Source: Myxococcota bacterium (GTDB lineage Bacteria; Myxococcota_A; Polyangia; Polyangiales; Houyiibacteriaceae). From it: a stretch of DNA of 63,111 nucleotides. Positions 20,571-37,559 of this stretch are shown here, one piece after another (the stretch's first letter is position 1; each line of letters begins with the position of its first letter). The DNA is taken from NCBI GenBank assembly GCA_025453555.1, contig JALOQC010000001.1, forward strand, positions 1-63,111, written 5' to 3'. The notes beneath the pieces were generated by a model. The model worked only from the letters and a program-made list of their open reading frames with translations. It searched no databases and had not been told where the DNA came from. A program made the translations under genes and the position numbers.

Positions 20571-20586
20571 TGGTCCGACGCTTGCT
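20571..20586 (+). promoter_or_regulatory. Candidate sigma-54 (-24/-12) promoter upstream of the 20613 operon
   Basis: TGGTCCGACGCTTGCT matches TGGCACG-N4-TTGCW with exact GG/GC spacing. It lies 27 nt upstream of ATG 20613, with GGAGG at 20599-20603. This is a sequence match only. Confidence 0.3.
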
Positions 20587-20612
20587 GAAGTTCTCGGCGG
20601 AGGCTGTAGTCG

Positions 20613-21449
20613 ATGAGCGTTGGGACCGAGCTCGCGCGGTCGCGAGGAACGGGTGTGCGTGGAGCACGTCCGACCGGTCGCCTCGTCGGTTCGACGGTCC
20701 CCGTGGCCAGCCTCGTGGCGGAAGAACGCGACAGGATGTGGGAGATCTTCCGCGTCTATTACCTCGACGTGCAGCGCGACGAGTTCGATCGTGATCTCGA
20801 CGAGAAGGATCACGTCATCGTCCTACGAGACGGCGGCGATCGGTCCATTCGAGGCTTCTCGACGCTGAAGGTCTACGATCAGAGCGTCGGCGGGCGACGG
20901 TTCCGCGCCATCTTCAGCGGCGACACCATCGTGGACGCTGCGTACTGGGGACAGAGCGCGCTGCACTGGACGTTCCTGCGATTCCTCGTCGCACAGAAGC
21001 TCCGCGCGGTCGGGACGCCGCTCTACTGGTTCCTCATCAGCAAGGGCTACAAGACGTACCTCCTCCTGGCGCGGAACTTCCCCGAGCACTGGCCGCGCCA
21101 CGATCGCGCGACGCCCACGGGTGCGCAGGCGATCCTCGACACGCTCGCGCGCGACCGGTACGGCGACGCGTACGACCCGAAACGCGGCGTGCTCTCGTTC
21201 CCGGAGCCCCACGGTCGCTTGCGCGCGTGCGTCGCGCCGCTGACCGAAGCGGAGCTCGCGCACCCGGACATCCGCTTCTTCGCCGAGCGCAACCCGGGTC
21301 ACGTCGACGGCGACGAGCTCTGCTGCCTCGGGCGCGTCGATCTCGGCTTCGTGCTGCGGGGCGCGCGGCGATCGATGATGCGGCCGCTCAAGCGCCCGCG
21401 TTCGCGGGACGGCCGGGCGCTGACTTCGTCGCAGGAGGTCGAGGTATGA
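20613..21449 (+). CDS. Conserved hypothetical protein, possibly a GNAT-fold acyltransferase-like protein
   Basis: ORF 20613..21449 has good coding statistics. Its stop overlaps the GH3 start (ATGA). The fold assignment is only my impression from the beta-strand/helix pattern around IRGFSTLKVY...FSGDTIVDAAYWGQSAL. Confidence 0.6.
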   Translation: MSVGTELARSRGTGVRGARPTGRLVGSTVPVASLVAEERDRMWEIFRVYYLDVQRDEFDRDLDEKDHVIVLRDGGDRSIRGFSTLKVYDQSVGGRRFRAIFSGDTIVDAAYWGQSALHWTFLRFLVAQKLRAVGTPLYWFLISKGYKTYLLLARNFPEHWPRHDRATPTGAQAILDTLARDRYGDAYDPKRGVLSFPEPHGRLRACVAPLTEAELAHPDIRFFAERNPGHVDGDELCCLGRVDLGFVLRGARRSMMRPLKRPRSRDGRALTSSQEVEV

Positions 21450-35900: not shown

Positions 35901-36734
35901 CACCGCGTCGAGATCACGGGCGTGCACGAGGCCCGCTTCGATCTCAAGACCGCACCCTTCGACGCGTTCTCCCCCTTTCGCGAGCCCGCGCTCGAGGCGC
36001 TCGGACCGCTCGGTCCGGTGGCGCTCGAACGCGACGTGCGTTGGCGCGACGCGCCACGACCCTTCGCCGCGGAGAGCCAGCAGCTCTTCGCGCGCTACGT
36101 GCTTCATGCCTCGCGTGCGACCTTCGCGCTCCACGCCGCGTCGCTCCTCGATCCGATCGGCGTGCTCGTCACCGACGGGCTCGACCTCGCCACCGATCCG
36201 GTGCGCCTGCGCCTCGAGCATCGTCGCTTCGCGTTGGTCGGCGGCACGCTCGCGGTCCCGCTCGGTCCGGTCGTCGTGCGCGTCGAGCTCGCCGCCGATC
36301 TCGCACGTCCGGTGCACCTGACGAGCGAGACTCCCAACGAGCTCCCCATCGCGGAGCGCACGATGCTGCGCGGCCTCGCCGGCCTCCGCTGGACGAACGA
36401 CCGTGGCGGCGTGCTCGACGTCGAAGCGAGCTACGCGCACGCGTCCGGCGAGCTCCTGTGGCCCTTCGAGGTGCCCACGATCGCGGGCCGCTACGCGCAC
36501 GCCTTCTTCCGCGATCGTCTCGAAGCCGAGGCCGTGATCGTGGCCACGGGACCTTCGCTGCGCGGGGGTGCCTTCGGTCGCGCGGAGCTCACGTGGCGCG
36601 CACACGACCAGCTCGCCGTCGCGCTCGGCGCCGCGACCTACCTCGACGGTCCCCGCCGATCGATCCTCGACGGCTTTTCACGCGAAGATCGCGCGTACCT
36701 GCGCGTCGAAGGTCGCCTCGACTCGTTTCGGTGA
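32913..36734 (+). CDS. MMPL / RND-superfamily exporter (COG1033-like, 12 TM), continuous in frame with a C-terminal region of about 525 aa that starts with a signal-peptide-like segment
   Basis: This is the C-terminal 1273 aa of ORF 31836..36734, with TTG 32913 overlapping the upstream stop (TTGA). It has two MMPL-type TM bundles (LSLGIALVTLLLFVVL..., LATLVVWLLVSTIFRS...AFGVAVDDTLHLI). There is no stop codon before MRARGSARPATLLLLAVGLGSVVSDTARAQ at 35157. Confidence 0.75.
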   Translation: MSAPRDLEALFAALLRRRTKALGAVVVLVALASVLAARVRPNYDAEAFLPTWDPRRLVFEEHAAAFAGSARRVSVFVEGTLDERTHTRLGAVARALHDEGLEDVTWIGNVELASADPEDPFSLRVDAPFADPSRAAEALASRRDDPLLVGRLFDPDADAFVVHATLPEDRDHPEGQLALEASLERRLAPLRAEGAVVRVAGLPVLKARGFRLVQGDATRFLSLGIALVTLLLFVVLRRLRDVLAILGSLIPPIVITLAAMGATGTPISALTSFVPLLVLIVGVCDALHLVEEVRAQRALGWPRREAIARAFSSLVRSCFHTSFTTAVGFASLATSNVAIVVELAIFTSLAVMLTYASTILVLPLLLDLGVERPVTSTRWLDLGVDALMSAARRHARRPSALLLGGIFVLCVAAVAGATRLRTNATMIDDVDPDHPLMRDLTWLEAQGLGPYSVELWIRGEGDALMEPEAQAWMARTTEWVRRGEPVRSVLGPPDFLASAARALDLPPPRTREEIAQLSLLLEMAAPSGLDEVWRPAEHEAQIVASVVDLGSARMGPFFDAWETRLRDDPPPAGVRADLTGVLRLAHVTLIDIVDGFATSLALATLVVWLLVSTIFRSLWHGFVALVPNVLPLLAMLGAMGALRLDVKPSTLLVFSVAFGVAVDDTLHLIGRVRERLRAGDAIELAIDTAIRTSGRALVLTSLVVGGGFLVLVTSDFQFLVMVGSMTGLAVVFALLGDLVIYPLLLRATMRARGSARPATLLLLAVGLGSVVSDTARAQHDEDTDSVSVTNALDVSDTDADTNTNTNADTDADTDTNTNADTDADTDADTDADTDADAIGFASSIPSAPLVDAAPSALRVHALLFQETHVALARSPRVPVARFGAQVHLEHRGEHARVVLGGHLEADPAARQLPDDSRAAMLWLVRPLDAYLHVDGGEHAASPVTLTLGFQRLGWGEGFLLSPLDLDPKDLRTPGLGAATRTTLSRLSTRVSFRHRAHRVEITGVHEARFDLKTAPFDAFSPFREPALEALGPLGPVALERDVRWRDAPRPFAAESQQLFARYVLHASRATFALHAASLLDPIGVLVTDGLDLATDPVRLRLEHRRFALVGGTLAVPLGPVVVRVELAADLARPVHLTSETPNELPIAERTMLRGLAGLRWTNDRGGVLDVEASYAHASGELLWPFEVPTIAGRYAHAFFRDRLEAEAVIVATGPSLRGGAFGRAELTWRAHDQLAVALGAATYLDGPRRSILDGFSREDRAYLRVEGRLDSFR
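35157..36734 (+). other. Distal module of the MMPL ORF: signal-peptide-like segment, acidic DTDA/NTNT repeat linker, and a domain of about 450 aa that may be an outer-membrane (DUF1302-like) protein
   Basis: An internal ATG at 35157 is followed by a canonical n-h-c signal sequence ending ARAQ. The rest is rich in alternating beta-type segments and ends with an aromatic residue near the C-terminus (RVEGRLDSFR). The DUF1302-like assignment is tentative. Confidence 0.4.
35298..35423 (+). repeat. In-frame 12-nt based tandem repeat (GACACCGACGCG and variants) encoding (DTDA/DTNTNTNA)n
   Basis: Read directly from the sequence. It lies immediately after the internal signal-peptide-like segment. Confidence 0.9.
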
Positions 36735-36737
36735 GCC

Positions 36738-37559
36738 ATGAAGCCCCTCCTCTCGTCCGTTCTCGTCTCCGCTCTGGCCGCGATCCTGATCGCGTCCTCC
36801 TCCGTGAGCGCACCCGTCGCGCATGCGCAGCGCGTCCCCGACGACGCACGTGCGATCCTCGAAGCGGTCCACGCGCGCGACGAAGGTGACCGCGGCCGCG
36901 CGCGCGTCCGCATGACCCTCCGCGACGCCCGCGGCGCCACCCGCGTCCGCGACCTCTCGATCCTCGGGCTCCGTAGCGAGGGCTCGCTCCACACGTTGGT
37001 GCGCTTCGAGAGCCCGAGCGACGTCGCGGGCACCACGCTCCTCACGCGCGACTACGACGACACGCGCACCGACGAGCAATGGCTTCATCTGCCCGCGTTT
37101 CGACGCACCACGCGCATCGTCGGCGCGGGCCGCGCGCGCTCGTTCCTCGGCAGCGATCTGACCTTCGCGGACCTCACGCGACGCCACCCCGACGACTTCG
37201 AGGCGACGCTGCTCGGTCAGGAGGACGTGGGCGGCGAGCGTTGCTGGCGGCTCGCGCTCGCGCCGCGCACCGACGCCATCCGCGACGAGCTCGGCTACTC
37301 GCGCATCGAGGTCTGGATCGCCCGTCGCACGCTGCTCGTGCTCCGCTCGAAGGCCACGCTCCTCGACGGTCGCTTCAAGTACGTCCAGGCGGAGGACGTC
37401 GCGCAGGTCGACGGAATCTGGGTCGCGCGTCGCCTCGTCGCGCGCACCGTACGCGGCACGACGCTCGAGTCCGAGACGGTGCTCGAACGCCGCGAGGTGC
37501 GCTTCGGCGACGCGACGGTGACTCCGGCGCTCTTCGAGCCCTCGCGCCTCGGCGGCTGA
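36738..37559 (+). CDS. LolA-like outer membrane lipoprotein-sorting protein family (DUF1329/LolA_like type)
   Basis: ORF 36738..37559, starting 3 nt after the upstream stop. It has a signal peptide (LVSALAAILIASSSVSAPVAHAQ). Family-typical segments are EQWLHLPAFRRTTRI, FLGSDLTFADL and W.L.L.P. Confidence 0.75.
   Translation: MKPLLSSVLVSALAAILIASSSVSAPVAHAQRVPDDARAILEAVHARDEGDRGRARVRMTLRDARGATRVRDLSILGLRSEGSLHTLVRFESPSDVAGTTLLTRDYDDTRTDEQWLHLPAFRRTTRIVGAGRARSFLGSDLTFADLTRRHPDDFEATLLGQEDVGGERCWRLALAPRTDAIRDELGYSRIEVWIARRTLLVLRSKATLLDGRFKYVQAEDVAQVDGIWVARRLVARTVRGTTLESETVLERREVRFGDATVTPALFEPSRLGG

Follow-up and report, generated by a model that had tools for sequence, protein, structure and literature searches.

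Members of the GH3 family of acyl-acid amido synthetases were tied to bacterial membrane lipids only in 2025, and in a single planctomycete clade. In Singulisphaera acidiphila, OlsH adenylates free fatty acids and N-acylates ornithine in the (trimethyl)ornithine lipid pathway, and its operon partners are OlsI, an alpha/beta hydrolase that acts as an O-acyltransferase, and OlsG, a lipid N-methyltransferase (PMC12493201). No other characterised bacterial GH3 was found in our literature search. Here we describe a train of twelve genes, g1 to g12, which includes a GH3 gene (g2) and lies in a stretch of 63,111 nucleotides (nt) from a Myxococcota bacterium (GenBank assembly GCA_025453555.1, contig JALOQC010000001.1). 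The whole of this stretch is called the window. We propose, with moderate confidence, that the train is a modular envelope-lipid system, which would synthesize and tailor an amide-linked lipid and export it toward the outer membrane.

A second group of described systems concerns the export side. AmeABCD of Castellaniella and Sama_1588-1591 of Shewanella consist of a DUF1302 outer-membrane protein, a DUF1329 LolA-like protein, a BNR/Ycf48 propeller and an HAE3 RND pump. A role in carrying hydrophobic compounds or some envelope component through the periplasm has been suggested for cassettes of this kind (PMC6394551; bioRxiv 10.1101/072470). GH3-dependent aminolipid synthesis and HAE3/DUF1302/DUF1329 export are therefore known kinds of system. 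What is uncharacterised in the window is the GH3 clade, its partner set, a fusion of the pump to a DUF1302 domain, and the RnfD-like/propeller and g6 partners.

The window GH3 represents a second clade, much wider than that of OlsH, with conserved partners of its own, namely two new GNAT families, a Rieske oxygenase and desaturases. Should the product prove to be an envelope lipid, one could use the cluster to test how non-phospholipid aminolipids reach the outer membrane; a 2026 review of aminolipids describes no such delivery pathway. The cluster also gives a context to DUF1302 and DUF1329/LolA-like proteins, to CRTAC1-like propellers fused to RnfD-like domains, and to the g6 family. Because Myxococcus xanthus DK1622 has the core of the system (Q1CWI5, the GH3, and Q1CWI6), genetics and lipidomics are feasible.

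Comparison with described systems

The train shares three enzyme classes with OlsH, OlsI and OlsG (GH3, alpha/beta hydrolase and methyltransferase), and the GH3 nucleotide-binding motifs are common to both; the product of the Ols enzymes is an amide-linked membrane lipid. When scored against the OlsH model NF052613, g2 reached 45.5 bits (cut-off 620), with only two short stretches aligned. The hydrolase g7 reached 28.2 bits against the OlsI model NF052614 (cut-off 385); its best NCBIfam matches were macrolide esterases and PcaD (3-oxoadipate enol-lactonase), which scored better but were all far under their own cut-offs. Since g2 and g7 lie so far under the OlsH and OlsI cut-offs, the relation is one of analogy and not of membership. 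The Ols operon is also without the GNAT-fold proteins, Rieske oxygenase and desaturases that travel with the window GH3 clade, and OlsHI has no associated exporter, unlike the window train. The plant GH3 enzymes (JAR1, GH3.12, GH3.5/6) belong to the same fold family, and motif III of the window protein, GLYRYRLLD, is nearly identical to the plant GLYRYRLGD. The biological context differs, the plant proteins being soluble hormone-conjugating enzymes with no operon organisation.

On the export side, g11 and g12 appear to supply three of the four AmeABCD-type components: an RND pump with 12 transmembrane segments, a candidate member of the HAE3/COG1033 type, then a DUF1302 domain and a LolA-like/DUF1329 protein. 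A BNR/Ycf48 (COG4447) domain was found by Pfam search in none of the twelve products. The propeller of the window is instead an FG-GAP/ASPIC domain in g5, tethered to an RnfD-like membrane domain, and corresponds to the fourth component by analogy only. The window also differs in that pump and DUF1302 domain are fused in one polypeptide of 1273 amino acids (aa), with a DUF1302 clade that is rare and divergent, and in that its enzyme set is biosynthetic, whereas the context of the AmeABCD type is catabolic. HpnN and the mycobacterial MmpL proteins are likewise RND pumps with sterol-sensing-like transmembrane regions; they export endogenous lipids and are encoded beside biosynthetic genes. HpnN, however, works without dedicated periplasmic or outer-membrane partners, and g11, at 75 bits against the HpnN model, is far from reaching either the HpnN or the BstA equivalog cut-off.

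A literature search for GH3, Rieske, GNAT and MMPL proteins in combination found no describing paper. A first-pass annotation of the window, made from the sequence alone, had stated that no characterised system of such composition was known. This holds for the ensemble, but OlsH/OlsI/OlsG and the AmeABCD type are partial precedents.

Organisation of the train

The twelve same-strand open reading frames (ORFs) run from 20613 to 37559 on the plus strand, each with a single terminal stop and none internal (Table 1). Long chance ORFs are present in all six frames of the window. As they are bred by its G+C content of about 70%, the support for the train comes from G+C at third codon positions (GC3), from Pfam or homologue evidence for each gene and from synteny, and not from ORF length. 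The GC3 of the twelve ORFs is 0.86-0.93, compared with a G+C of about 0.70 window-wide, and GGAGG-like Shine-Dalgarno motifs are found upstream of most starts. At ten of the eleven junctions the genes, all on one strand, overlap or lie at most 8 nt apart, which is the arrangement of a translationally coupled unit.

Table 1. Positions of the genes, gene parts, junctions and upstream motif of the train in the window
Feature	Position	Strand	Description
Upstream motif	20309..20327	+	GTCATGACACGGTGCGTCA; conserved 19-nt motif about 285 nt before g1; candidate operator or promoter element
g1	20613..21449	+	278-aa soluble protein, predicted GNAT fold; new family; most constant partner of GH3
g2	21446..23110	+	GH3-family acyl-acid amido synthetase; predicted ATP-dependent carboxylate adenylation and amide formation
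g3	23103..24248	+	alpha-only Rieske non-haem-iron monooxygenase (Rieske and VanA_C; PF00355, PF19112)
g4	24257..25480	+	407-aa protein, predicted tandem GNAT; overall fold nearest N-myristoyltransferase
g5	25586..28468	+	960-aa fusion: RnfD/NqrB-like membrane domain, FG-GAP beta-propeller and UnbV_ASPIC (CRTAC1-like)
g6	28465..29094	+	209-aa membrane protein, five predicted helices (hydropathy)
g7	29094..30083	+	alpha/beta-fold hydrolase; nucleophile motif GMSFGG (GxSxG); PF00561, PF12146
g8	30080..30664	+	integral-membrane ICMT/PEMT-type S-adenosylmethionine (SAM) methyltransferase; PF04140, PF04191
g9	30668..31798	+	membrane di-iron fatty-acid desaturase/hydroxylase family; PF00487, 77.4 bits
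g10	31795..32916	+	TauE/SafE-family permease; PF01925
g11, N-terminal part	32913..35156	+	RND transporter of MMPL type, candidate HAE3, 12 transmembrane segments, sterol-sensing-domain-like region
g11, internal junction	35157..35423	+	signal-peptide-like segment MRARGSARPATLLLLAVGLGSVVSDTARA/Q (35157-35246), then Asp/Thr-rich linker (35298-35423)
g11, C-terminal part	35433..36734	+	divergent DUF1302-family domain of about 430 aa; predicted outer-membrane protein; in-frame fusion to pump
g12	36738..37559	+	predicted secreted LolA-like (TP_0789-like) periplasmic carrier
Junction g1/g2	21446		ATGA overlap
Junction g2/g3	23103		8-nt overlap
Junction g3/g4	24257		8-nt gap
Junction g4/g5	25481-25585		105-nt gap; sole sizeable intergenic gap of the train
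Junction g5/g6	28465		GTGA overlap
Junction g6/g7	29094		TGATG overlap
Junction g7/g8	30080		ATGA overlap
Junction g8/g9	30668		3-nt gap
Junction g9/g10	31795		GTGA overlap
Junction g10/g11	32913		TTGA overlap
Junction g11/g12	36738		3-nt gap

A near-identical metagenome contig from JGI, annotated independently, encodes the same products (960, 209, 329, 194, 376, 1273 and 273 aa); g10 starts later in that annotation, giving 355 aa vs 373 aa, 18 residues shorter. The twelve coupled genes, their frames and all eleven junctions given by the first-pass annotation were recovered on the sequence, and the independent gene call agrees apart from the start of g10. The train is bordered on its 5' side by a 495-nt intergenic region, which follows an unrelated SRCR/DUF4215 gene, and on its 3' side by a convergent Ser/Thr kinase gene. 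The nearest genomes are metagenome-assembled genomes (MAGs) of uncultured Sandaracinus (Myxococcota, Polyangiales), in which the GH3 is 95% identical.

The core enzymes g1 to g4

All three GH3 domains were recognised in g2, as matches to PF03321 (N-terminal, 115.8 bits), PF23571 (middle, 46.5) and PF23572 (C-terminal, 32.8) exceeded the cut-off of 23.6. Following the motif definitions of PMC12493201 (SSGTSxGxxK-like, YxxSE-like and GLYRYRLGD-like), the nucleotide-binding motifs are TGGSTSTGK (aa 104-112), KGLLATEG (303-310) and GGLYRYRLLD (363-372), with key residues that do not vary among 14 homologues. The profile of the clade matched plant JAR1/GH3 structures (E=8e-31), which are the closest solved structures. 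The Rieske protein g3 carries the [2Fe-2S] ligand motif CLH...CPYH at aa 75-97 and the mononuclear iron motif DVPHTVWVH (DxxHxxxxH) at aa 188-196; its closest solved relatives are DdmC, SxtT, NdmA and KshA.

The two remaining core proteins were characterised through their predicted structures. No Pfam or NCBIfam model matched g1, and none of its more than 4,200 homologues is named; each search scored 8,000 candidates, and this number, like the more than 1,600 GH3 homologues, counts those within the E-value thresholds. The AF2 model of g1 (pLDDT 87.9) gave 69 Foldseek matches in the PDB at E<=1e-3, of which those listed were all GNATs. The best were AAC(2'), Eis-like and NatD acetyltransferases, with a probability of 1.0 and a TM score of about 0.5 on the target. 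At the sequence level, a profile of g1 run against the PDB returned nothing at E<=10. Similarly, g4 had no Pfam match at 0.01 (only 0.099 to Acetyltransf_9), and PF00583 or PF13527 was found in a few of its homologues. Its AF2 model (pLDDT 90.6) was closest to N-myristoyltransferases, on which it superposes over about 400 columns (E ~1e-12, TM score 0.55-0.6), followed by the tandem GNATs MAB_4324 and 3tt2. Judged from these models, g1 and g4 belong to the GNAT fold superfamily, and what had been a guess of two GNAT-like proteins is upheld by structure prediction and fold search. The fold of g4 is closest to that of N-myristoyltransferase and other tandem-GNAT acyltransferases, and g1 has the single GNAT fold of lipid N-acyltransferases; known GNAT acyltransferases, however, have no detectable sequence similarity to either protein. 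OlsB, GlsB and the bacterial ceramide synthase are bacterial GNAT-type N-acyltransferases of lipid synthesis.

In two g1 homologues, P0207 (481 aa) and P0228 (468 aa), the GNAT protein is joined to Cupin_8/Cupin_4 domains of the JmjC oxygenase type. These fusions hint that hydroxylation is functionally tied to g1 even without a Rieske gene.

Conservation of the core and its neighbours

The neighbourhood of the GH3 gene was compared in its relatives. The scan used one genome per species and a GH3 alignment; it yielded 457 relatives, of which the best 80 loci were taken with 10-kb flanks. These were examined by tblastn with the twelve window proteins and by all-against-all clustering of the neighbouring ORFs. 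The comparative set comprised 113 related loci in all. Metagenome loci were sampled from the g6 side, and the counts for genome loci are out of 82. At a tblastn threshold of 1e-8, g1 accompanied GH3 in 65 loci; at 1e-4, it stood directly upstream of GH3 in 50 of the 66 loci that hold both. A Rieske gene was present in 36 loci, in 26 of them directly downstream of GH3, and g4 in 48-50. MAGs with the core are labelled Myxococcota, Burkholderiales, Pseudomonadales, Acidobacteriota, Planctomycetota, Gemmatimonadota, Fibrobacterota and Oligoflexia/Silvanigrellales, so that the core g1-GH3-Rieske-g4 recurs under the labels of at least seven phyla, including Pseudomonadota and Bdellovibrionota. The core is also present in S. 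amylolyticus and M. xanthus. Phylum counts from MAG labels call for caution, as three loci with the GH3 core (L079, L031 and L061) come from MAGs labelled Thermoplasmatota archaeon, Clostridia and Enterobacteriaceae. Their GH3 proteins are 45-49% identical to that of the window, the G+C of L061 is 64%, and the labels are probably binning or classification errors.

Membrane proteins of the FA_desaturase family, falling into four subfamilies, lie near the core in 31 of the 83 loci counted for them, and their presence correlates strongly with that of the Rieske gene: 27 loci have both, 9 the Rieske gene only, 4 the desaturase only and 42 neither. In two of the subfamilies there are fusions of a PAP2 domain with the desaturase. 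Examples of such PAP2 (or PAP2_3)-FA_desaturase fusions beside the GH3 core were seen in distant lineages at L048 (12654-14183) and L081 (10582-12858). Phospho-head-group transferases are found among the PAP2_3 enzymes, so these variants may attach or take off a head group that contains phosphate. Further recurrent neighbours are B12 radical-SAM enzymes, alpha/beta hydrolases and SAM methyltransferases, with other families of alpha/beta hydrolase found in about 10 loci each. In 11 loci (e.g. L030, 8468-9898) a B12-binding radical-SAM gene is located immediately upstream of GH3; some of these loci are without a detectable g1 or Rieske gene and may represent an alternative tailoring module.

The membrane and export genes accompany the core less often. 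Among the genome loci, g5 was found in 11 and g6 in 8, and in most of the metagenome loci the two genes are neighbours. Copies of g6 in distant loci are 40-55% identical and nearly always adjoin g5 and/or g1, GH3, Rieske and g4 genes, in varying order. The exceptions are L091 (20.5 kb) and L104 (9 kb), where a g6 homologue (47-51% identity) has no other gene of the system detectable in its flanks. An MMPL gene lies within 10 kb of GH3 in 7 of the 82 loci, under several phylum labels; MMPL genes beside the core were seen in L019, L020, L026, L061, L068, L069, L101 and L114/115, of which L101 and L114/115 are metagenome loci, and a CRTAC-like gene adjoins the MMPL gene in L019 and L061/L101. Downstream of the core in L061 (14392-18694) there are also a MacB-type ABC exporter (FtsX/MacB_PCD permease and ABC ATPase) and a protein of 814 aa whose C-terminal domain is PNGase-F; with this exporter the same core would be served in another way. 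Outside the close clade, a TauE-like gene was found once (L089, next to g6-GH3-Rieske) and an ICMT-like gene once (L069, 31% identical to g8).

The complete order of twelve genes is confined to Sandaracinus-like relatives (L003-L006, and L085 together with L086). The system is modular, with a widespread core, the recurrent membrane partners g5 and g6, and an exporter in a minority of loci. The fixed twelve-gene pathway block of the first-pass annotation has therefore to be given up. The co-occurrence of GH3 with an MMPL/LolA-like set, which it had put forward for examination, is borne out in part: MMPL lies near GH3 in the minority of loci given above, but a LolA-like gene was found in just one of the 82 loci, the distant L069.

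Membrane, tailoring and export genes

The fusion protein g5 matched PF03116, PF13517, PF01839 and PF07593. Its membrane domain has eight hydrophobic segments by hydropathy, at aa ~40-330, and the protein matches the structure of human CRTAC1 (9etn). No Pfam or NCBIfam model matched g6, whose conserved motifs are YVTKNWRPPYGIAHD and TTGDDGVWFAD. The hydrolase g7 is a candidate O-acyltransferase or esterase. The methyltransferase g8 scored 74.6 bits against NF040696 (cut-off 160), and the desaturase-family protein g9 has the histidine boxes HELGH (aa 83-87), HNQLHH (120-125) and HHVEHH (288-293) and four hydrophobic segments. In the central loop of the permease g10 there are in-frame ADH[TA][AE]R hexapeptide repeats, encoded by an 18/36-nt tandem repeat at 32270-32405. 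The g10 protein is only 84% identical in L085, a contig that is otherwise 93-98% identical, which suggests that the repeat varies in length.

The N-terminal part of g11 scored above the cut-offs of PF03176 (MMPL), PF12349 (SSD) and PF02460 (Patched), and its 12 hydrophobic segments span aa 21-745. Against the HAE3 model TIGR00921 it gave E=8.9e-47 and 159.6 bits, under the cut-off of 351.9. The DNA for the Asp/Thr(/Asn/Ala)-rich linker that follows the signal-peptide-like segment consists of about 10 tandem copies of a 12-nt unit. For the C-terminal domain itself there was no direct Pfam match, and only 176 relatives were found among 1.84 billion representative proteins, with alignments to the window domain down to E=2e-93. 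Nearly all of them stand alone: they have 460-560 aa, with the domain in C-terminal position, and come with a signal peptide and acidic linker of their own and with an aromatic C-terminus like that of outer-membrane proteins; 33 of 40 aligned members match PF06980 (DUF1302). By this transitive homology, the C-terminal domain of g11 is assigned to the DUF1302 family with a predicted outer-membrane role, which gives substance to the "possible outer-membrane module" of the first-pass annotation. Because the standalone homologues have a signal peptide and an acidic linker of their own, the internal segment of g11 looks like a relic of gene fusion. An intact fused ORF in three independent assemblies (L084, L085 and P0294) shows that the fusion is no assembly error. 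The homologue P0294, 96% identical, has 1258 aa, 15 residues fewer than the 1273 of g11.

The carrier g12 matched PF17131 with 132.1 bits and PF07044 (DUF1329) marginally, with 23.8 bits (cut-off 23.1). It has an N-terminal signal peptide that ends in AHA/Q, and a lipobox cysteine is absent. Profile-HMM searches agreed with every family call that the first-pass annotation had made for the train, namely GH3, Rieske, FA_desaturase, ICMT, alpha/beta hydrolase, RnfD-like with FG-GAP/UnbV_ASPIC, TauE, MMPL and LolA_like, and no PKS, NRPS or FAS domain was found within the train, again as had been stated.

Regulatory sequences

The motif GTCATGACACGGTGCGTCA upstream of g1 was unique in the window even when two mismatches were allowed, with 0 occurrences expected in shuffled sequences. 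The pattern recurs exactly upstream of the g1 orthologue in L004, L005 and L006, and with one mismatch in L003. It is a candidate operator or promoter element of the train, on the basis of this conservation. A scan for sigma-70 promoters, the g4/g5 gap included, revealed none that stood out, and terminator-like hairpins were at chance level (7 vs 6.3 expected), all within genes. Between 20050 and 20700 there was no Rfam match at E<=1 to indicate a leader or riboswitch. No stable fold was found in the g4/g5 gap (z-score +1.44), and the 3' end of the train was likewise no better than shuffled sequences. A gap of about 74-220 nt is kept at the g4/g5 junction in L003-L006. This gap marks the boundary between the conserved core, g1 to g4, and the membrane, tailoring and export half of the train.

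Proposed pathway and its alternatives

In the envelope-lipid pathway that we propose, GH3 would use ATP to adenylate a lipid carboxylate, which may belong to a free fatty acid, possibly a hydroxylated one, or to an N-acyl amino acid, and would then couple it to an amine through an amide bond. The putative acyltransferases g1 and g4 would acylate amine or hydroxyl groups of the same molecule, and the Rieske monooxygenase g3 would hydroxylate the product. In the membrane, the lipid would be decorated by the desaturase/hydroxylase g9, the methyltransferase g8 and the hydrolase g7, which could act as an O-acyltransferase, as OlsI does, or as an esterase. The HAE3/MMPL pump would extract the product from the inner membrane and hand it to the LolA-like carrier g12, from which the DUF1302 outer-membrane domain fused to the pump would receive it. 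The constant accessory partners would be g5 and g6, and the propeller of g5 may play the role of the BNR/Ycf48 protein in AmeABCD-type cassettes.

What the analysis shows is how the genes are arranged, which families and folds their products belong to, that catalytic motifs are in place and which genes co-occur. We infer that the substrate is a lipid, in which order the steps follow, which way transport runs and that it ends at the outer membrane. The substrate is read from the long-chain-acyltransferase-like fold of g4, from the constant desaturase and lipid-tailoring neighbours, and from the combination of a lipid-type RND pump with a LolA-like carrier. The recurring neighbours (PAP2-desaturase fusions, B12 radical-SAM enzymes, SAM methyltransferases and alpha/beta hydrolases) are typical of lipid tailoring and support this pathway. 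The first-pass annotation had already suggested a modified acyl-amide or lipid destined for the outer membrane. With product and destination both putative, this remains the best reading, strengthened by the recurrence of g1 to g6, desaturase and MMPL genes in neighbourhoods across phyla.

Several observations weigh against the proposed pathway. The M. xanthus orthologues bear only generic names, and a function for the GH3 clade is read from sequence. The distance of g2 from OlsH and of g7 from OlsI makes a transfer of substrate by analogy weak. The likeness of g4 to N-myristoyltransferase (TM score ~0.6) may reflect the tandem-GNAT architecture alone, which is common to the Fem/MprF-type aminoacyl-tRNA transferases. 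An electron donor (ferredoxin or reductase) for the Rieske protein or the desaturase was not found within the train. The exporter adjoins the core in only about 9% of the genome loci and the LolA-like gene in one, so that the link to export is strong only in this lineage and a few distant loci. DUF1302/DUF1329/RND cassettes elsewhere lie in catabolic islands, so cargo and direction are less certain. Finally, as the g4/g5 gap is conserved in relatives, the train may comprise two transcription units.

The g4/g5 gap, the low share of loci with the exporter and the catabolic islands all speak for the alternatives. The DUF1302/DUF1329/RND cassettes, which occur in islands for the catabolism of monoterpenes, phenanthrene, p-cresol and steroids, and of which AmeABCD gives monoterpene tolerance, would fit a role of the train in detoxification or catabolism. 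In such a role, GH3 would conjugate an exogenous hydrophobic acid (aromatic, terpenoid or steroid-derived) to an amino acid, g3, g7, g8 and the GNAT proteins would modify it, and the HAE3, DUF1302 and LolA-like components would export it or take it up. The closest solved relatives are in keeping with this, since plant GH3s, which inactivate hormones, take small aromatic or jasmonate acids as substrates, and the Rieske relatives are demethylases and hydroxylases of xenobiotics and natural products (DdmC, NdmA, carbazole dioxygenase and KshA); the macrolide-esterase and enol-lactonase matches of g7 agree as well. However, neither the train nor its conserved neighbourhood contains ring-cleavage, beta-oxidation or CoA-ligase genes. 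The recurring fatty-acid desaturases, PAP2-desaturase fusions and B12 radical-SAM enzymes act on lipids, the fold of g4 resembles a long-chain acyltransferase, and the breadth of the core, with more than 4,200 g1 homologues and labels of at least seven phyla, resembles that of a housekeeping function. We therefore regard a catabolic role as quite improbable. A product that is a lipid but is released, for example an N-acyl amino acid or a lipopeptide-like surfactant, signal or antibiotic that RND and DUF1302 proteins deliver to the medium or to vesicles, appears unlikely. Myxobacteria do secrete many lipids in predation and development, and a pump joined to a channel-like DUF1302 outer-membrane component resembles an efflux design. 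Still, a LolA-like carrier with an SSD-type MMPL pump is more typical of lipid delivery between membranes, which is the task of HpnN and MmpL-type transporters, and ornithine-type aminolipids accumulate in outer membranes.

The modular conservation raises the further question of whether g1-g4, g5-g10 and g11-g12 are unrelated operons that abut by accident and have no common pathway. The 74-220 nt gap kept between g4 and g5 in relatives would be explained in this way, as would the restriction of the full order to Sandaracinus-like MAGs, the S. amylolyticus and M. xanthus cores without nearby MMPL, LolA, TauE or ICMT genes, and the low counts of MMPL (7 of 82) and LolA-like genes (1). What makes an accidental composite doubtful in our view is that g5, g6, MMPL, desaturase, TauE-like and ICMT-like genes rejoin the core in different orders in distant loci (L019, L061/L101, L068/69, L081, L089, L102, L106, L108 and L114/115). 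Different gene orders in distant lineages are the signature of functional, not of inherited, linkage, and the close spacing of ten of the eleven junctions is likewise at odds with chance abutment.

A more specific variant of the envelope-lipid pathway, rather speculative at present, assigns another step to GH3. Because dedicated GNAT acyltransferases are present, the enzyme may act on a head-group carboxylate instead of a fatty acid. The GNAT proteins would then build an N-acyl amino acid, and GH3, as a head-group-extending ligase and not a primary N-acylase, would amidate its free carboxylate with a second amine. Together with the LolA-like carrier and the RnfD-like/propeller protein, the fused HAE3-DUF1302 pump would then be the first known route dedicated to bringing aminolipids to the outer membrane. 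As second amine, a further amino acid may serve, or a sulfonate amine; taurine, an example of the latter, would fit the TauE-family permease g10 in the train. Cerilipin is formed by ATP-dependent transfer of taurine to ornithine lipid, by an enzyme known by assay since the 1970s whose gene is unidentified, and the chemistry is the same ATP-dependent one that a head-group-extending GH3 would perform.

Two further candidates were rejected. A link to sterols was considered on account of a weak SdmA match of g3 (83 vs 600 bits), the SSD/Patched and faint BstA matches of g11 and a weak ERG4/ERG24 match of g8, but all were far under the equivalog cut-offs, and the core also occurs in many lineages that are not known to make sterols. 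The homospermidine lipids of M. xanthus have been assigned to the hsl genes and MXAN_1675/1676, which form a different locus.

Neighbouring genes

The gene directly upstream of the train (17061-20117, plus strand) encodes a 1018-aa protein with three SRCR domains (E=2e-55) and DUF4215 repeats. The scavenger receptor cysteine-rich (SRCR) domain is best known from animal proteins, and its occurrence in a myxobacterium is noteworthy. About 5 kb downstream of the train, on the opposite strand, lies a planctomycete-type pair, consisting of an HXXSHH gene (PF07586) and a gene with PSD/PSCyt domains (PF07626, PF07631, PF07627 and PF07624). The planctomycete-type pair at 15067-18023 of L084 corresponds to these minus-strand genes of the window past the kinase, and seems unrelated to the train.

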